Positions 2,610-36,485 of a DNA stretch of 37,440 nt are shown piece by piece. Positions within the stretch are counted from its first letter, which is position 1, and each line of letters starts with the position of its first letter. The notes under the pieces are model-generated. The model saw nothing but the letters and a program-made list of their open reading frames with translations, had not been told where the DNA came from and ran no database searches. Made by a program: the position numbers and the translations under genes. The DNA comes from a phage. The stretch lies in assembly GCA_025289735.1 (NCBI GenBank), contig GCA_025289735.1_4764.1. One strand, 5' to 3'.

Positions 2610-4022
2610 TTAGAAAGTCATGTTATTTGCTAGCTCGTCGAGTTTTTCTCGTTTCTCGGCTTGCTGTGCGCTTTGTGGTTTAACTTGTGCATTCTCCTGA
2701 TCTGCGATCTGGTTTGGTACTTCATACCAACGCTGATTGCCTTTCTTCACACCAACGTTAAACCGTGAATAATAGTTCTTATCACCGTAACGAGACTTGA
2801 TCTGCTTCATGAGTTGGACGCCCATTTTAGCCAGGTCTTCGGTTTCGATAACACCCAACATAAAGTCGGCAGTAGCCGGAAGACCTGCTGATTCAGCGGT
2901 ATCACTCATGTTAAGGTCTGACGCATCCCAACCCGCGCGGGTAGTCTGTGCCGCAGTCCAACCAACAACATCCCACTTAACAAAAAATCCTCGCAGTTCT
3001 TCCGCAATCGCCTTAACTAGTGTGTAACTATTTTCAGAGTATACACGCAAGCGAGACGATGCGCAAATCCCCAGATAGTCAACAATCACAACATCAGGTT
3101 TAAACTGTTTCTTGAGTCGCAATTCATTCATTAACGCCTCAAAGTGATTGGAGTTCGCGCCACCAGTCGGATACTGCTTGATCATCAATTTTCCAACCGG
3201 ACGATCTCCGATCTTCTTATTCTTAACACGCTTCATGCGTGCGGAATATTCCGCAAAAGAAACATTACCATTATCCAATTCATCTAATGTAATGTCAAGC
3301 AAGTTTGCGTCGATACGTTTTGCTACTACATGTTCTGCCATCTCCATTGAGATATACAATACATCATAACCACATTCCATATAATCCGCAGCAAGAGAAC
3401 ACAAGCCAAGCGATTTACCAACGTTTACACCAGCAAGCAACACATTTAGCGTTTTTCTTTCCGCCCCTCCTTTCGTGATTTTATTCAACATCGGCAGCTT
3501 AAACGGGATCTTATTCGCCTTAGTCTGATATAGCAAGAATCGTTTTTCAAAGTCATTAAACCAGTCATGACCTACATCAGAATCAAACGTAATGGATAGT
3601 GCTTCCTGCATGATCTCAGGAATAGCACCCTCACTCGGCAATTTCTTATTCTGTTTCTCTTTTGGTAGTTGTGCGTTCGCCTGAATCTCTAGCGCCCGTG
3701 ACATTGCATTATACATGGCACGGTCACGAATAAATTTTTCGGTTTCCTTCATTAACCAATCAAGGTCTTCCGGTGTATTCTCAAGCGAATCAAGAAGAGT
3801 TTTAGCCCCTTCATATGTTGTCTGATTGCCTCTCTCCTTGTCTAAAGCAATCTGTAATGCAGTTGGCGTAGGAATATTGGAATATTCGTCTACGTGCTTT
3901 TTAATCAGCTTATAAATCAGTTTTTCTTCGTCTTCGGTGAAGTAGTCCGCTTTAAGGTGAGGCCATACATTCGTAAAGAATGCGCCATTGTAAATCAACT
4001 GTGAAAAGATAGTTTTAATCAT
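2610..4022 (-). CDS. 41: replicative DNA helicase, DnaB-like (T4 gp41)
   Basis: 470 aa; Walker A GVNVGKS; long colinear identity to remembered T4 gp41 (e.g. LYISMEMAE, KQYPTGGA, VVIVDYLGIC, AESAGLPATADFMLGVIETE, KQIKSRYGDKN). Confidence 0.95.
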   Translation of the reverse strand: MIKTIFSQLIYNGAFFTNVWPHLKADYFTEDEEKLIYKLIKKHVDEYSNIPTPTALQIALDKERGNQTTYEGAKTLLDSLENTPEDLDWLMKETEKFIRDRAMYNAMSRALEIQANAQLPKEKQNKKLPSEGAIPEIMQEALSITFDSDVGHDWFNDFEKRFLLYQTKANKIPFKLPMLNKITKGGAERKTLNVLLAGVNVGKSLGLCSLAADYMECGYDVLYISMEMAEHVVAKRIDANLLDITLDELDNGNVSFAEYSARMKRVKNKKIGDRPVGKLMIKQYPTGGANSNHFEALMNELRLKKQFKPDVVIVDYLGICASSRLRVYSENSYTLVKAIAEELRGFFVKWDVVGWTAAQTTRAGWDASDLNMSDTAESAGLPATADFMLGVIETEDLAKMGVQLMKQIKSRYGDKNYYSRFNVGVKKGNQRWYEVPNQIADQENAQVKPQSAQQAEKREKLDELANNMTF

Positions 4023-4336
4023 ACATAGCCCCCAACTACACGCATAACAAAGGTCTTGAGTTTATACCAGAAAGTTTCTTTTTTCAACTTTTCTTCTGCT
4101 TCTTTGATCTGCGCGGTTAACGCCTTAATGACGTGTGGATATACCACATCACGATCTGACGGCGTGGAGTAGTCGACCACAATACCTTTAGTGTCTGGAT
4201 CGTATTCAACATTATGAATATAGACAATATGATGTTCTCCCTCTTCATCAACAATTATCAATTCCTGAATAACTGTCTTCATTGCTTCTTGAATCAAGCC
4301 GTGTGCTTCTTCTAAACTTGTTGGTTTCTTATCCAT
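4019..4336 (-). CDS. hypothetical protein (105 aa), positional equivalent of T4 gene 40
   Basis: ORF track; stop overlaps gp41 ATG (ATGA); SD GAGAGGA. Assignment is positional only. Confidence 0.55.
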   Translation of the reverse strand: MDKKPTSLEEAHGLIQEAMKTVIQELIIVDEEGEHHIVYIHNVEYDPDTKGIVVDYSTPSDRDVVYPHVIKALTAQIKEAEEKLKKETFWYKLKTFVMRVVGGYV

Positions 4337-4391: not shown

Positions 4392-5462
4392 TTATGCTAA
4401 CATATCTTCGATTTCTTTGTCAACTGCTTCGTCGCTGATCACTTGCCCCAGCTTATAATGATCGTTGATTGCTTCGTTAAACTTATCGTTTGTCAGAAGT
4501 GGTTTCCAGAACTCAATGCTATTGGTTTCTTTAGCACGGAACTTGCGTTCTTCGGTTTCCATCTCTCCGGTCTCGGTATTTAGGATTGAACGAGAATACC
4601 AGCCGTTTGACGGTTTCACTACCCAGCCTAACTCTACAGCCAATTCCAGCAAGCCGGAATAAGGATCGATGCCACCGCTAAATGTTACGCTAATCGGGAA
4701 CTTCGATTTTTCTTTAACGGTTCGTGATTTTTCCGCATTCAGGATAAAATCATAACCAGTAATTTCGGTTCCTTCTTTCTGCTGACGACGACCAATAATG
4801 AAAACTTCATTGGCTGAATACATCGCGCCCGTACCGCCGGACATAACGGTCTTACTAAACATTTCTTGCGTTTCGTAAGTGTGGTTAATAGCGATGCACG
4901 GGATATCATTCATAGTCAGATACGGCGTAACCATACGGAACAAGCCTTTAAGTGCTTTCGCTCGCGTCATATCCTGTGCGGATTTCTCATTAATCGCGTC
5001 TTCAACTTCTTTTTTACTTGCCAAGTTACCGATTGAGTCAATAAAGATGATCACTTTATCTTCACGGGTAATTTGCTCAAGCTGGTTCATGATTTCAAAT
5101 TTAAGTTCTTCGATGTTCTTGATTGGAACATGCACTACGCGATCAGGATCTACGCCCATAGATTCCAGATAAGCGGGCGTGATACCGAACTCAGAATCAA
5201 AGAACAAACAAGCCGCATCGGGATTCTGTTTCATGTATGCACTAACACAAGTTAATCCCATGTTTGATTTAAAGTGCTTAGACGGACCAGCAAAGAAAAT
5301 CAGACCAGATTGAAAGCCTTTTTTAAGATCACCGGAAAACGCAATATTCAGCATCGGGATCTTAGTGCGAGTATTTGTTTTTTCGTTAAAGAAGCTGGAT
5401 TTAGACAGTACCGCAGTAGTTTTCAGGGTAGAGTTCTTTTTCAGTTTTTCCAGTACAGACAT
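4392..5462 (-). CDS. uvsX: UvsX recombinase (RecA-like)
   Basis: 356 aa; extensive identity to T4 UvsX (KIPMLNIAFSG, GPSKHFKSN, FDSEFGITPAYL, DSIGNLASKKE, IPCIAINHTYETQEMFSKTVM, SRTVKEKSKF). Confidence 0.95.
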   Translation of the reverse strand: MSVLEKLKKNSTLKTTAVLSKSSFFNEKTNTRTKIPMLNIAFSGDLKKGFQSGLIFFAGPSKHFKSNMGLTCVSAYMKQNPDAACLFFDSEFGITPAYLESMGVDPDRVVHVPIKNIEELKFEIMNQLEQITREDKVIIFIDSIGNLASKKEVEDAINEKSAQDMTRAKALKGLFRMVTPYLTMNDIPCIAINHTYETQEMFSKTVMSGGTGAMYSANEVFIIGRRQQKEGTEITGYDFILNAEKSRTVKEKSKFPISVTFSGGIDPYSGLLELAVELGWVVKPSNGWYSRSILNTETGEMETEERKFRAKETNSIEFWKPLLTNDKFNEAINDHYKLGQVISDEAVDKEIEDMLA

Positions 5463-5473
5463 TATTAATACCT

Positions 5474-5662
5474 CTATTCAGTTAATCCGTAATACTTTAA
5501 TTGCTTCATTGTTATTCGATCTTTGTAGTGCTCTTGAATTAACTTTTTCATCGCATCAACATCGATCGTCACAAATACTTCGTTGCTGTGATTTCCGTGA
5601 ACTTTCTTGAAATGCTCTATGCCTTCCTCACGTTCACGTTTAATCTTTTCAATGTCTCTCAT
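5474..5662 (-). CDS. hypothetical small protein (62 aa)
   Basis: Track ORF 5474..5701 starts at a GTG that lies at or upstream of the transcription start predicted from promoter 5707..5734; first ATG downstream is 5662. Sits where T4 has beta-gt/42/imm. Confidence 0.4.
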   Translation of the reverse strand: MRDIEKIKREREEGIEHFKKVHGNHSNEVFVTIDVDAMKKLIQEHYKDRITMKQLKYYGLTE

Positions 5663-31375: not shown

Positions 31376-31684
31376 TTATTTCACGTTAACGCCGTCATCA
31401 ATCCAGCCGACGCTATTTTGTTTAACAGTTTTACCATAGGATGCATACTTAATCAAGCATGGTTTAACATCATTATCAAATCTTCCTAAACGTACTCCCA
31501 AATCAGGAATATCCATGTATGCGGCTTTATATCCCCATGTGCCGTATTCAGAATCAATCTCAACCGGACGGCCTTTAAAAGCATACACTACACCGTGACG
31601 GTCAACGATAACATAGCGATAGCCAGCCGGAAGATACACAGTTTCGCCGTAAACTTTAACTGGAGTAGCAGAAGAGATAAACAT
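31376..31684 (-). CDS. hypothetical protein (102 aa)
   Basis: ORF track; ATG 31684 with GAGGA SD, downstream of promoter 31719..31747. Confidence 0.55.
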   Translation of the reverse strand: MFISSATPVKVYGETVYLPAGYRYVIVDRHGVVYAFKGRPVEIDSEYGTWGYKAAYMDIPDLGVRLGRFDNDVKPCLIKYASYGKTVKQNSVGWIDDGVNVK

Positions 31685-31718
31685 AATATAATCCTCACAT
31701 CGTTCATTTGATGCGGTT

Positions 31719-32394: not shown

Positions 32395-32423
32395 AGTATA
32401 GGGGATCACCGATCCCCTGTCAA
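32395..32423 (-). promoter_or_regulatory. PeSL-like early promoter (-35 TTGACA, 17 bp with palindrome GGGGATCGGTGATCCCC, -10 TATACT)
   Basis: Plus strand agtata(32395-32400) and tgtcaa(32418-32423); spacer palindrome has two GATC sites. Confidence 0.6.
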
Positions 32424-32440
32424 CAACTTTTTTTATGATT

Positions 32441-32695
32441 TTAGTGAATTAACTCTACACCAAAATGAGGCACAGAGAACGCCTTACGAAACACATATTC
32501 ATCATGTTTAGGAATCGCGCCTAACCTCTCTATTTCGCTCGCTAACACGATAAACTGTTTATCCGGTGCATTTACCTTATATGCTTCAACAACGCACGGA
32601 AAACGCGTTTTAGAGAGTTCAGGATAGTTTTCTGACTCCATCAGGACAATGAATACTCTGTTACATTGATTGTAGAATCCTGTTTTTGATTTCAT
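32441..32695 (-). CDS. hypothetical protein (start uncertain)
   Basis: Track ORF 32441..32761 overlaps the paralog at 32661..32999 in another frame; shortest version starts at ATG 32695. No strong SD. Confidence 0.35.
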   Translation of the reverse strand: MKSKTGFYNQCNRVFIVLMESENYPELSKTRFPCVVEAYKVNAPDKQFIVLASEIERLGAIPKHDEYVFRKAFSVPHFGVELIH

Positions 32696-32999
32696 CAAGT
32701 TTTCTTCTCTGTACAATTCGTGCAATCTTCCTTTCATGATTTCGTTGGTTCTTGTCTTCACAGTTTACCCACTCAACAAGATCTTTACCTAACTCGAAAG
32801 CCCATTCTCGGTCTTGCTTTACGTTTTGTAGGTATGGACTTTCCGACACTCTACGAAGTGATGTTGTCGTAACAAGAATGACCCCAGGAATGGTCGGATG
32901 TTCCTTGCCATAAACAATAGGACGCGAGTCACTATCAATACCTTGTAAGAAGGTGTATCCTGAATCATTTAGAATCATATACATTTTCATTTCACACAT
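32661..32999 (-). CDS. small-protein family member ('GYTF' family), longest copy
   Basis: N-terminus MKMYMILNDSGYTFLQG resembles MKIEIIDRAGYTFMEK (32999..33256) and MKIKIEIFDDGGYSFMKG (33275..33478); ATG 32999 with GAGGAAA SD, overlapping upstream stop. Confidence 0.5.
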   Translation of the reverse strand: MCEMKMYMILNDSGYTFLQGIDSDSRPIVYGKEHPTIPGVILVTTTSLRRVSESPYLQNVKQDREWAFELGKDLVEWVNCEDKNQRNHERKIARIVQRRKLDEIKNRILQSM

Positions 33000-33256
33000 C
33001 ACAGTTTCCTCAACCAGTTATTAAAGCGAGTAAACCATGATGCTTTTCGTGCTTCTTTTACTTTATATGCACGCAAACCACTGAAACACCATTCATAATC
33101 ATCACTGAAACATGATTCAACAGGAACACCCGCATTTCGTAGTTCTCTGGTCTTTATCATGAATCCTTGACATAAGGGGCGACCTTCAACAATGATAGGA
33201 AGTTTAACTTTTTCCATGAAAGTATACCCAGCACGGTCAATAATTTCAATCTTCAT
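32999..33256 (-). CDS. small-protein family member ('GYTF' family, 85 aa)
   Basis: GYTFMEKVKLPIIVEGRP core; ATG 33256 with conserved leader GAGGATTATATT. Confidence 0.55.
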   Translation of the reverse strand: MKIEIIDRAGYTFMEKVKLPIIVEGRPLCQGFMIKTRELRNAGVPVESCFSDDYEWCFSGLRAYKVKEARKASWFTRFNNWLRKL

Positions 33257-33274
33257 AATATAATCCTCAATTGA

Positions 33275-33478
33275 TTACACTTCCCAGGCTTCTTTGCTAA
33301 GAAAACACCATTTATACTCAGGAGAATAACCTTTAATCGGTACTCCGGCTTTTTGTAATTCCTGCGTTTCAACAACATAATCATGCCCATACGGTCGGCC
33401 TTCCACGATGATAGGAAGTTTAACACCTTTCATGAAAGAATATCCACCATCGTCAAAAATTTCAATTTTAATTTTCAT
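33275..33478 (-). CDS. small-protein family member ('GYTF' family, 67 aa)
   Basis: GYSFMKGVKLPIIVEGRP core, matching the copy at 32999..33256; GGAGA SD. Confidence 0.55.
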   Translation of the reverse strand: MKIKIEIFDDGGYSFMKGVKLPIIVEGRPYGHDYVVETQELQKAGVPIKGYSPEYKWCFLSKEAWEV

Positions 33479-33501
33479 TTTACATTATCTCCATAGTTCT
33501 T

Positions 33502-33723
33502 TCAATCAATATCAATTTCACCAGCACGAACATCTAGGATAAGATGCGGTAGGTGTATGCAATTTTCCCAACCAATGCGCTTCATTTCTTCTACGGTAAC
33601 GTAAGCCCACCCGTTCGCTGTAATAAAGTCTACTTCAACCTTGAGAGGAAAGCAAGACTTTTCTATGTTTTCAAATCCGATAATGTGTTTTGTCGTTGAA
33701 TATGGAATATATCCGGTGATCAT
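33502..33723 (-). CDS. hypothetical protein (73 aa)
   Basis: ORF track; ATG 33723 overlaps stop of upstream gene (ATGA). Confidence 0.5.
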   Translation of the reverse strand: MITGYIPYSTTKHIIGFENIEKSCFPLKVEVDFITANGWAYVTVEEMKRIGWENCIHLPHLILDVRAGEIDID

Positions 33724-34154
33724 TTTGTGATCTCCTTATACTCAACACACCATAAGCGGGTAGCCCATGATAAACGCTCATAACGCTGGCAGAAATCGGA
33801 CCATAGATATTGTGCACCGTTCGGCATAGTTGAAATATGCGTTTTCTCTCCAACTTTCACGAAAGAAGTATTCGATTTTGTGATCTCGACCGGAGTATAT
33901 CCGAAAGCTGGTTCCAAGTCAACATCTGAACTAAATGCCAATTTAACAGAATTTGTTTTTCTGACCGCTGTCCGGTTTCCTTCTGGGTATAGCACAGCAG
34001 GTTTAGCGCCTAAGCGGATAAACTCAGTGTTTTTAATAAACAGAATATCATGATAACCGTCATATTCCGACACTTCCATAGTAACAGGAAAATCGACATG
34101 TGCTAAACCTGGTAGATCTCGCATATCATGAAAGGTCGCCATCAACTTTTTCAT
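33720..34154 (-). CDS. hypothetical protein (144 aa); C-terminal domain paralogous to 34165..34383
   Basis: C-terminal VEITKSNTSFVKVGEKTHISTM..YLWSDFCQRYERLSWATRLWCVEYKEITK matches IVITKSNMSFVEVGEHTHITTM..YIWSSFCKSYELLSWAIDVWKIEYEVITEE; GAGGAA SD. Confidence 0.55.
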   Translation of the reverse strand: MKKLMATFHDMRDLPGLAHVDFPVTMEVSEYDGYHDILFIKNTEFIRLGAKPAVLYPEGNRTAVRKTNSVKLAFSSDVDLEPAFGYTPVEITKSNTSFVKVGEKTHISTMPNGAQYLWSDFCQRYERLSWATRLWCVEYKEITK

Positions 34155-34176
34155 TCTATATTCCTCACTCTTCTGT
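34151..34176. repeat. 26-bp perfect direct repeat, copy 1 (tcattctatattcctcactcttctgt)
   Basis: Identical to 34380..34405; covers start codon and SD of two paralogous genes, marking a tandem duplication. Confidence 0.8.
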
Positions 34177-34383
34177 AATTACTTCATATTCAATTTTCCA
34201 TACATCAATCGCCCAGCTTAAAAGCTCATACGATTTACAGAAAGATGACCAAATATACTGTTTTCCGTGCATCGTTGTTATGTGTGTATGCTCACCAACT
34301 TCAACGAAAGACATATTTGACTTTGTGATAACTATAGGAATGCGACCGAAAGGTGGCGGTATTACTGATTCGTTGGTCTTCAT
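34165..34383 (-). CDS. hypothetical protein (~72 aa), paralog of the C-terminal domain of 33720..34154
   Basis: In-frame ATG 34383 carries the same SD/leader as its paralog (track ATG 34410 lacks an SD). Confidence 0.5.
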   Translation of the reverse strand: MKTNESVIPPPFGRIPIVITKSNMSFVEVGEHTHITTMHGKQYIWSSFCKSYELLSWAIDVWKIEYEVITEE

Positions 34384-34405
34384 TCTATATTCCTCACTCT
34401 TCTGT
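34380..34405. repeat. 26-bp perfect direct repeat, copy 2
   Basis: Identical to 34151..34176. Confidence 0.8.
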
Positions 34406-34591
34406 TTCATTTCTTTTATATGGTACTATAACAGGATTAATACAGCAAGCACCAATTACGTTATGAGCACCACAATTTAAGCATTTATAATCATGGAACT
34501 TATTAAGGAATCGCCCGAACTCATAACCGACTAACGCCGCGTGTACTTGAGTCTCGATCTCATCCATATCAGCCAATGTTTTAACCTTCAT
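34394..34591 (-). CDS. hypothetical Cys-rich small protein (~65 aa)
   Basis: ATG 34591 with conserved leader GAGGATTATATT (track ATG 34630 lacks it); contains CLNCGAHNVIGACC. Confidence 0.45.
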   Translation of the reverse strand: MKVKTLADMDEIETQVHAALVGYEFGRFLNKFHDYKCLNCGAHNVIGACCINPVIVPYKRNETEE

Positions 34592-34601
34592 AATATAATC
34601 C

Positions 34602-34892
34602 TCAAATACTGGTTTTGCGAAGATGGTCATTACATGCTTTTAATGCATCAGTCGAGGTGTCATAGCGAGTATTATCATAGCACCAATAACCATCTGTCAA
34701 CTGATAAATTAATCCATCCTTTTTAGCGTCGATGAAAGACAATTCTTTGAAAGTTTCTACTTTCTTTGCTGATACTCCACGGTCACGGCGTTTATAGAGT
34801 TTAGCTAAAACGCGTTCAGCTTGTTCCTCTTTATCGCCAGACAGATCCCAGATGACGTTTCTGATATGCTTGATTAATTGTTCAGTGGTCAT
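34602..34892 (-). CDS. hypothetical protein (96 aa)
   Basis: ORF track; ATG 34892 with AAGGAG SD downstream of promoter 34922..34949. Confidence 0.5.
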   Translation of the reverse strand: MTTEQLIKHIRNVIWDLSGDKEEQAERVLAKLYKRRDRGVSAKKVETFKELSFIDAKKDGLIYQLTDGYWCYDNTRYDTSTDALKACNDHLRKTSI

Positions 34893-34921
34893 ATTTGATT
34901 CTCCTTAGTTGGTATGGTTAT

Positions 34922-34949
34922 CATTATACGGGGATTTCTCCCCGTGTCA
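34922..34949 (-). promoter_or_regulatory. PeSL-like early promoter (-35 TTGACA, 16 bp with palindrome CGGGGAGAAATCCCCG, -10 TATAAT)
   Basis: Plus strand attata(34922-34927) and tgtcaa(34944-34949); spacer palindrome identical to that at 15259..15274. Confidence 0.65.
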
Positions 34950-34953
34950 ACAA

Positions 34954-35175
34954 TTAAATGATCTCTGCTTCACCGTTAAGGAAGAAGGACCAAGTTTTGT
35001 TAGGATAACGAAGCGCCCATGATTCAGCAGTTTTAACACCAGCTTCGAACAATTGACGGCTGGTTACTTTAGCCATACCATCTTCGATGGCAACGTTTTC
35101 AATAATCATCGGGTACTTAGCGCCACGCATGAAACCGAAGCCAGCGGAAGATTTGATGATTTTAACAGTTGCCAT
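34954..35175 (-). CDS. small-protein family member (73 aa), GYTF-like
   Basis: Track start lies upstream of the promoter; ATG 35175 with AGGAGA SD. MATVKIIKSSAGFGFMRGAKYPMIIEN resembles the GYTF/GYSF copies. Confidence 0.5.
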   Translation of the reverse strand: MATVKIIKSSAGFGFMRGAKYPMIIENVAIEDGMAKVTSRQLFEAGVKTAESWALRYPNKTWSFFLNGEAEII

Positions 35176-35214: not shown

Positions 35215-35243
35215 ATTATGCAATAACACCGGATCGCTGTCAA
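35215..35243 (-). promoter_or_regulatory. sigma70-type early promoter (-35 TTGACA, 17 bp, -10 CATAAT)
   Basis: Plus strand attatg(35215-35220) and tgtcaa(35238-35243). Confidence 0.55.
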
Positions 35244-35546: not shown

Positions 35547-35893
35547 GCCAGACCTCGCAAAACACTAATAGCATAATCATGCTGGTTATTCATAATATCA
35601 ATTGCATTGTGATAACGAGCTAAACCATCAAGGATAAATTCTTGTTTATCCTGTTTCAGTTTGGTATCACGCGCAGCCATAAGAGCATCAAGAACAGGTC
35701 CAAAGTGATTATCTAATTCATCTTCGGTTGCAATGTTTCCTATTGCCTCGTCGATCCGTGATTCTAATGCTTGCTTTTCGTTGATCACTTGCTGGGTATA
35801 TTCCAACACATCAAGAATATCGCGGGTAACGTCGCCATGATAAGGTATTCCCGCATGAAGATGATCAATTAATCGCTGAATATCAATGTTCAT
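35543..35893 (-). CDS. hypothetical protein (116 aa)
   Basis: ORF track; GAGGAGGG SD; ATGA overlap with upstream gene. Confidence 0.5.
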   Translation of the reverse strand: MNIDIQRLIDHLHAGIPYHGDVTRDILDVLEYTQQVINEKQALESRIDEAIGNIATEDELDNHFGPVLDALMAARDTKLKQDKQEFILDGLARYHNAIDIMNNQHDYAISVLRGLA

Positions 35894-36228
35894 TTGTAAC
35901 CCTCCTCTGAAAGCACATCCCAGATCGTTGAGTCAAGGTGCATTAAATTCCACATAATAGAGTCATAACTACCGAAGCCAGAAGTAAAAATTACATCACA
36001 CTGGCGATATGTCTTATGAAAATCGGTGGCTGTCTCTGCATCAATCGGCATATCGTCACCTGAAAGCACCAGACATTTAAGAATCATAACTCTGTTAGCC
36101 GTTGGCGCTTGCTTAGTCTTTTCAGCATATTTTTCGATGATCCGTTTTGCCTTTTCTTCTTTGATACGTCCAGACCAAATCCGGTTTCGGTATTGATTCA
36201 TAATAATTTCAATCACATCATTTTGCAT
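35890..36228 (-). CDS. hypothetical protein (112 aa)
   Basis: ORF track; ATG 36228. Confidence 0.5.
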   Translation of the reverse strand: MQNDVIEIIMNQYRNRIWSGRIKEEKAKRIIEKYAEKTKQAPTANRVMILKCLVLSGDDMPIDAETATDFHKTYRQCDVIFTSGFGSYDSIMWNLMHLDSTIWDVLSEEGYK

Positions 36229-36427
36229 TCTTCACGGTCTCCATAATTGTTTTGTAAGCCAGCTTAAGATGATCACCGAAAAACTTTGCAGTGTTACCCT
36301 TCGGATCGCGGAGCATGGTTTCTACGATCTCATCGGCAGTAACAATTTCTCCTTTCTTTGCTGCATGTTCTACCATATACTTCAAAGTTTCTTCGGAAGC
36401 AAGTGCTGCGGCTACTGGATTAATCAT
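36218..36427 (-). CDS. hypothetical protein (69 aa)
   Basis: ORF track; AAGGAGAA SD; first gene after promoter 36457..36485. Confidence 0.5.
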   Translation of the reverse strand: MINPVAAALASEETLKYMVEHAAKKGEIVTADEIVETMLRDPKGNTAKFFGDHLKLAYKTIMETVKNAK

Positions 36428-36456: not shown

Positions 36457-36485
36457 ATTATGCTATACCATATTCCGGTTGTCAA
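36457..36485 (-). promoter_or_regulatory. sigma70-type early promoter (-35 TTGACA, 17 bp, -10 CATAAT)
   Basis: Plus strand attatg(36457-36462) and tgtcaa(36480-36485); part of the module also present at 23816..23915. Confidence 0.6.

Follow-up and report, generated by a model that had tools for sequence, protein, structure and literature searches.

The DNA analysed here is a 37,440-nucleotide stretch of a phage genome (NCBI GenBank assembly GCA_025289735.1, contig GCA_025289735.1_4764.1; hereafter the window), which belongs to a Krischvirus, that is, an RB49-like T4-type phage. Ten small genes, designated A to I and X and all encoded on the minus strand, occupy a 3-kb region that shares 98% identity with Escherichia phage FL20 and 92–95% with RB49, Phi1, GEC-3S, ECD7 and about 55 further Krischvirus records, and that corresponds gene for gene, one for one, to RB49 ORF071c–ORF080c. 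They lie in the early-transcribed hyperplastic region that separates dam from rI (rI.-1/rI/tk), and the ten genes are annotated as "hypothetical protein" in all records that we looked at. Our comparisons indicate that seven of them (A, B, C, D, E, the N-terminal part of F, and I) encode one and the same domain of ~65 residues. Throughout, copies within the window are called paralogs, and ortholog comparisons are those of the window with RB49 or Brandy.

By BLASTP within the region, the products of genes C (32999–33256; RB49 ORF073c) and D (33275–33478; RB49 ORF074c) are 51.5% identical over 66 amino acids (E 9e-24), while that of gene I (34954–35175; RB49 ORF080c) shows 31% identity to C (E 7e-6) and 34% to D (E 6e-5), and that of gene B (32661–32999; RB49 ORF072c) just 23–25% to C or D, with E about 1e-3. 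PHROG 7345 is clearly matched by C, D and I (E 2e-38, 8e-31 and 5e-34, respectively), in each case across positions 1–66 of the 66-position profile, and their paralogy is already implicit in that family, to which PHROGs 13367 and 15322, with annotations that name no function, are related. Genes A (32441–32695; RB49 ORF071c), B, E (33502–33723; RB49 ORF075c) and F (33720–34154; RB49 ORF076c), in contrast, have no direct match to PHROG 7345; they sit in PHROGs 17411, 16316, 15979 and 16117, respectively, and are joined to it only by the profile analysis presented here. A profile hidden Markov model (HMM) of C, D and I, run with HMMER exhaustively against 1.84 billion representative proteins, recovered only 26 clusters, several of which are proteins of 136–156 amino acids in which the domain occurs twice in tandem; two large surface-adhesin repeat proteins from the same search (P0014 and P0021) were judged to be spurious sums of weak repeat matches. 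An HMM built from the distant homologues alone, with no sequence from the window, was run on the 375 six-frame open reading frames (ORFs) of at least 40 amino acids in the window, and the best seven of the 375 were D (E 5e-21), C (3e-19), A (1.5e-10), I (1.7e-8), F (5.6e-6, residues about 24–62), B (1.6e-5) and E (3.6e-4), the eighth-ranked ORF having an E-value of 1.3; a broader HMM yielded no additional member in the window. With hhalign, the distant-homologue profile aligned to A at 96% (E 2e-9), to B at 95% (E 3.7e-8, 78 columns) and to the N-terminus of F at 94.5% (E 8e-8). When the residues of A, B, E, F and I were each shuffled 1000 times, the best scores were 5–10 bits, against 15–36 bits for the real sequences, which were never equalled (9.3 vs 19.5 bits for B, 8.0 vs 15.2 bits for E), so that compositional bias, the artefact against which the original prediction had cautioned, is excluded. 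On the basis of the HMM, hhalign and shuffling results, the domain is therefore carried by six genes in a row (F, E, D, C, B and A) and by gene I. The original prediction had recognized four genes with a common N-terminal signature, and the family that it proposed is real, but the members number seven and the similarity extends across the whole ~65-residue domain.

The domain occurs in three forms: bare in A, D, E and I, followed by a C-terminal tail in B (~40 residues, charged) and C (basic), and fused to a second small domain in F, where it takes up residues ~13–66. The start of gene A at 32695 was set by the PHROG alignment and the RB49 annotation. Gene D varies in its presence among relatives, and E is a probable divergent member, which in the window stops 10 codons before the end of RB49 ORF075c (GAT TGA in place of GCT GGA, within 33502–33530); the E-to-D spacer is accordingly 23 nucleotides in the window, where RB49 has a 4-nucleotide ATGA overlap instead. 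RB49 ORF076c (3815–4249 of our RB49 record, L001) is annotated as a protein of 119 amino acids from an internal methionine, with the full 144-residue ORF and its Shine–Dalgarno (SD) sequence intact; this full ORF differs from F of the window by 5 synonymous and 2 nonsynonymous changes.

The structure prediction proposed earlier for the ~70-residue unit was run with AlphaFold2 on D, using an alignment of 32 sequences, and gave a mean predicted local distance difference test score (pLDDT) of 97.4, with all residues above 90. The model consists of a short helix and five strands, which form a barrel that can be superposed on known SH3, KOW or integrase C-terminal structures. The prediction, of very high confidence, is thus that of an SH3-like small β-barrel, the closest fold class being that of SH3, KOW, the retroviral integrase C-terminal domain and PsaE/PetP. 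All BFVD matches to the barrel model are uncharacterised phage proteins. For the whole of gene F, modelled from a shallow alignment, the AlphaFold prediction was poor (pLDDT 50), and a Foldseek search of the PDB returned noise (best E 1.4).

A second family links gene X (34165–34383), a standalone domain, to the C-terminal domain of F (residues ~80–144). The two are 58.5% identical over 65 amino acids (BLASTP, X against F residues 80–144, E 5e-26) and both match phrog_10407 (E 8e-26 for F), which bears out the earlier suggestion that X is a paralog of this part of F. Small standalone ORFs of the same family are found in Salmonella phages 9NA and SP069 and in Aeromonas phage Avpd1, with 46–54% identity to X and to the F C-terminal domain and a common core, ITKSN.(S/T)FV.VG...I...G...WS...YE.LSW...W.VE(Y/F). 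In those three phages the gene is an isolated ORF, located in SP069 and 9NA between tail genes on the opposite strand, whereas the window has two copies of the domain, one of them joined to the barrel domain.

Gene X is bracketed by two copies of a perfect direct repeat, at 34150–34176 (downstream copy) and 34379–34405 (upstream copy). As had been noted, the repeat is perfect and spans the starts of X and F; its length is 27 nucleotides instead of the 26 given before. The two copies, which are 100% identical, are the only matches in the window when up to 3 mismatches are allowed, against 0.00 expected from 100 shuffles. The coding (minus) strand sequence of the repeat is ACA GAA GAG TGA GGAATATAGA ATG AA, and consists of Thr-Glu-Glu-stop of the upstream gene, the SD sequence with its spacer, and the start of the next gene; the downstream copy covers the stop of X and the start of F, and the upstream copy the stop of G and the start of X. 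The sequences directly flanking the two copies are unrelated. Among relatives, ECD7 has one mismatch in the upstream copy, and in the relative L010 the F-proximal copy is a 3-mismatch variant, GGAATACAAG, as in Brandy, so that the two L010 copies differ at 3 positions; the RB49 junction, GGCATACAAG, has 4 mismatches, one change beyond the Brandy/L010 variant. A scan of IMG/VR for the 27-mer found it only at the orthologous locus, on two contigs, and it is therefore not a dispersed repeat. We conclude that the repeat is a gene-junction sequence that bounds a 229-bp cassette, not the remnant of a young duplication.

The copy-number comparison across related genomes that had been suggested bears directly on this cassette, the body of which is X. 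Both X and F are present in 10 of the 59 Krischvirus records; in about 44 the site is empty, exactly 229 bp shorter and with a single copy of the repeat left; and three (G37-3, phiS and G5211) have another arrangement. The distribution of X is patchy with respect to overall similarity, as it is absent in MIZ4/5 (97.7%) and present in ECD7 and the Makalu phages (about 95%). In G37-3, a 445-bp deletion has produced an X::F hybrid that joins codons 1–9 of X to F residues about 83–144, with the crossover in the homologous stretch CCG.CA.CTTTCGG and with loss of the barrel domain of F. Gene D is absent in ECD7, L010 and G37-3, where the body of C directly follows the E/D junction; the crossover lies within ATGAA[A/G]ATTGAAATTATTGA, common to D and C, which are near-identical in their first 20 nucleotides. 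These three cases show that copy number and alleles change among relatives via homologous recombination at short identical stretches, namely the junction repeat for X, paralog bodies for the X::F hybrid, and paralog 5' ends for D and C. The 27-bp repeats bracket X as a presence/absence cassette, and X plus F would be the simplest common ancestor of the F-only and hybrid arrangements. A metagenomic protein of 86 residues (P0020) joins the N-terminal 54 residues of a homologue of the gene at 36218–36427 to the C-terminal 32 residues of D, which implies that some phage has lost about 3 kb of the region in frame. The C allele of G37-3 (P0007) was considered as a D::C hybrid as well; since the middle of the protein matches neither parent, it is treated as a divergent allele.

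The identity of the two repeat copies could instead be kept by selection on a translation-initiation or coupling signal and have nothing to do with recombination. That the repeat is exactly a stop/SD/start junction fits such a role, as does the recurrence of another junction motif, TTGAGGATTATATTATGAAG, at three gene starts in the window. On the other hand, RB49, Brandy and L010 have 3–4 changes in the junction upstream of F (GGAATACAAG or GGCATACAAG), which shows that this precise sequence is not required, and the end-points of the 229-bp indel fall exactly on the repeat. We regard this explanation as improbable, while granting it more weight than the other alternatives considered below.

The pairwise alignments and substitution analysis proposed at the outset speak to the age of the array. 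Between C and D the proportion of synonymous differences (pS) is 0.66, with 1.57 synonymous (dS) and 0.37 nonsynonymous (dN) substitutions per site; the corresponding values for the F C-terminal domain and X are 0.72, 2.44 and 0.31, dS is 1.33 for C and I, and D and I are saturated (pS > 0.75). Paralog dN/dS is about 0.13–0.24, a sign of long-term purifying selection. The overall ortholog dN/dS is 0.17–0.19, and gene I differs from its orthologs by 9–10 synonymous and 0 nonsynonymous changes (10 and 0 vs RB49). Between the window and RB49, per-gene dS is a mosaic, from 0.00 for C to 0.49 for D, which implies allelic exchange at the scale of single genes. The array is found in essentially all of the 59 Krischvirus records, and each family member has orthologues across the genus at 85–100% identity.

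Homologues further afield extend this picture. A pair of metagenomic contigs, L013 and L014 (Logan SRR8048117 and SRR8048111), from a phage without a close relative in the phage collection, carries seven copies of the domain in five genes of 63, 68, 142, 145 and 70 amino acids (L013 268–1569 and L014 117–308), two of which are two-domain fusions. This array lies in a syntenic region, where it adjoins homologues of the window genes K, M and 31376–31684 and is upstream of Mom-like, QueC-like and Dam (D12-class methylase) genes. Independent two-domain barrel fusions exist among the distant homologues, and tblastn detected unannotated single or double copies of the domain in scattered phages of Proteobacteria, namely in phages of Proteus, Pantoea and Iodobacter, Vibrio VpV262, Henu7 and Citrobacter Moon, in the last of these between gp32 and frd. 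The recurrence of a multi-copy array in the early region of divergent phages suggests selection for multiplicity. Because synonymous sites are saturated, the array is genus-wide and a seven-domain array exists in a distant phage, the amplification is old and persistent instead of recent, and we take the array to have arisen, as these sequence comparisons indicate, through old tandem amplification and to have been kept under purifying selection.

The contrary view, that a recent local duplication was followed by rapid diversification and left the 27-bp repeats as the remnant of a young tandem duplication, is the one that the original prediction favoured. The adjacency of the paralogs, the perfection of the repeat and a stretch of 80 nucleotides at 80% identity between C and D can all be read in this way. 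The low synonymous divergence expected between young copies was, however, not seen in any paralog pair; orthologues of each member are spread over the genus, the sequence just beyond the 27 bp is unrelated, and the two L010 repeats differ at 3 positions. We therefore consider a recent origin very unlikely. The local tandem origin of both families stands, and so does ongoing diversification, in the form of a flux of copy number and alleles by recombination together with the mosaic dS, but not as fresh gene duplication.

It is just as improbable, in our estimation, that the seven barrel proteins, instead of binding independently, come together as a hetero-oligomer, such as a stacked adaptor or a ring of the Sm/Hfq type. 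In favour of this, small β-barrels often oligomerise, seven copies of the domain occur both in the window and in the distant L013/L014 array, and two-domain fusions recur.

Alternatively, X could belong to a mobile element of its own, such as a miniature transposon or a cassette of the integron-like or homing-endonuclease-associated type, with the 27-bp repeats as a target-site duplication or att-like sites. Perfect direct repeats flanking a small insert of patchy occurrence would fit such an origin. We consider it the least probable of the alternatives, given that the 202 bp between the repeats are wholly taken up by X, that no recombinase or endonuclease gene lies nearby, that there are no terminal inverted repeats, that homology between ordinary paralogs serves for two further indels of the operon, that the 27-mer was seen in IMG/VR only at the orthologous locus, and that fewer than 50 bp of homology are reported to suffice for T4-type recombination (PMC2839356).

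The transcriptional organization of the region places these events within a known framework. Strong sigma-70-type promoters on the minus strand are found at 36485–36457, 35243–35215, 34950–34923 (12/12), 32423–32395 (11/12) and 31747–31719 (12/12), and the GEC-3S annotation has promoters at corresponding places. Two of them contain G/C-rich stems between the -35 and -10 elements (-14.7 kcal/mol, z -3.8, at 34950; -13.8 kcal/mol at 32423). The PeSL elements of T4-type phages consist of an early promoter with a stem-loop, mostly between -35 and -10, followed by an SD sequence and a start codon (PMC2839356), and this anatomy, in an intergenic position within the hyperplastic region, is seen at two sites of the window. 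The first, at 34953–34893, comprises TTGACA, a 16-nucleotide spacer with the stem CGGGGAG..CCCCG, TATAAT, the SD sequence and the start of gene H (34602–34892), the first gene after the 34950–34923 promoter; the next, at about 32430–32390, comprises TTGACA, the stem GGGGATC..GATCCCC and TATACT, and closes the operon. From these positions, H-G-X-F-E-D-C-B-A form one early unit that reaches to ~32423, whereas I, flanked by PeSLs, forms a single-gene unit of its own between the early promoters at 35243–35215 and 34950–34923. The 27-bp repeat is not of this kind, as it consists of stop, SD, spacer and start only, with no stem-loop at either copy; a promoter scan gave a weak 9/12 match overlapping the upstream copy (34410–34382) and nothing at the downstream one.

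The first of these PeSL sites also coincides with an indel of another gene. The tail-fibre adhesin gene 38 (about 780 bp; 4860–5636 of the RB49 record) is found in RB49, GEC-3S, ECD7 and most relatives between H and I, more exactly between I and the 34950 PeSL, where the window has the 61-nucleotide PeSL spacer alone (34893–34953). Gene 38 is absent from this site also in FL20 and G37-3, according to their annotations, and in MIZ4/5, G2494 and KMB43, as judged by match length; when RB49 gp38 was used as a tblastn query, no adhesin gene was located in the phages without one between H and I.

PeSL-mediated modular shuffling of ORFan cassettes in the hyperplastic regions of T4-type phages was described by Arbiol et al. 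2010 (PMC2839356) and Comeau et al. 2014 (PMC4122927), and what we see is alike in several respects: the phage group (RB49/phi1) and the type of region are the same, small early ORFans are gained and lost, homologous recombination acts at short repeated intergenic sequences, and the window has canonical PeSLs at 34950–34923 and 32423–32395, the former being the site of the gene 38 indel. It differs in that the X cassette is bounded by a promoter-less 27-bp stop/SD/start junction inside an operon, and in that two more of the indels use the homology of paralogous coding sequences. Paralog families are not described in the published PeSL papers, in which the word "paralog" occurs 0 times, and a literature search combining RB49, paralog and hyperplastic returned nothing relevant besides the PeSL paper.

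The explanation that in our view best accounts for the whole is that of an old SH3-like array in an early operon, whose copy number drifts by recombination and whose proteins would serve as accessory binders; we put its probability at about three in four. As to function, we can only suggest that the barrel proteins are non-essential early binders of host or competitor targets. They would act as accessory modules produced immediately after infection, each binding a host or competitor macromolecule, with the barrel as a common scaffold and the loops, the tails (in B and C) or the fused domain (in F) supplying specificity.

Several observations weigh against this explanation. In family and structure searches the barrel domain had no named homologue: C, D, I, A, B and F have no Pfam match at E up to 1, and the family profile has no PDB sequence match at E up to 1, so that membership in a canonical SH3, KOW or Tudor sequence family was not found; the ten proteins have no match at E up to 0.1 in PADLOC, a collection of known anti-phage defence proteins; and a literature search by RB49 ORF names, UniProt id and PHROG id found no paper that mentions these ORFs. 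Early transcription is predicted from the match of the promoters to the consensus and from what has been published on relatives of RB49. Gene E is a marginal member of the family, at 58% and E 1e-4 by hhalign. X shows no clear purifying selection, with 3 synonymous and 2 nonsynonymous changes vs ECD7 and 1 and 5 vs L010, and in the FL20 record it carries a frameshift. Nor can a direction be assigned to the X event; loss by recombination between the repeats and gain by allelic exchange during co-infection are both possible. In FL20, the closest relative (3255–3490 of record L003), the frameshift results from a 1-nucleotide deletion in an A-run and takes effect after residue 40, which may reflect a pseudogene or a sequencing error.

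The shuffling of ORFans in hyperplastic regions via short-repeat recombination is already described for the same phage group, and no new kind of system is revealed here. New are the extent of the family, with its seven members, its confidently predicted fold, the recurrence of the array in a distant lineage, and three promoter-less recombination junctions, which provide three sequence-resolved cases of gene-number change in T4-type hyperplastic regions without PeSLs. For annotation, seven "hypothetical proteins" of RB49-like therapeutic coliphages become one domain family with a confident predicted fold, and four separate PHROGs are linked to PHROG 7345. It may further be speculated, tentatively, that promoter-less stop/SD/start repeats and paralog 5' ends constitute a general intra-operon counterpart of PeSLs, from which genes are excised, perhaps as mini-circles, and re-inserted, and that the array is a maintained and reshuffling battery of binders directed against variable host or defence targets; were this doubtful extension true, Krischvirus and a distant metagenomic lineage would have in common a conserved early "arsenal" locus.

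Some minor features of the neighbouring genes may be added. Gene G (34394–34594; RB49 ORF077c) encodes a CxxC...CC cysteine pattern that is suggestive of a small zinc-binding protein, and weakly matches phrog_7517. The motif TTGAGGATTATATTATGAAG (coding strand) constitutes a second translation-initiation cassette, at the starts of C, G and the 31376–31684 gene, with copies at 33244–33270, 34579–34605 and 31679–31700; those of C and G are 93% identical over 27 nucleotides, and the third is 82% identical over a 22-nucleotide core. Finally, the products of H and of gene L (35890–36228) have in common an N-terminal motif of ~47 residues, IRN.IW..SG..KEE.A.R...K, with a Smith–Waterman score of 57 that was equalled in 0 of 2000 shuffles, suggesting a further paralog pair in the region.

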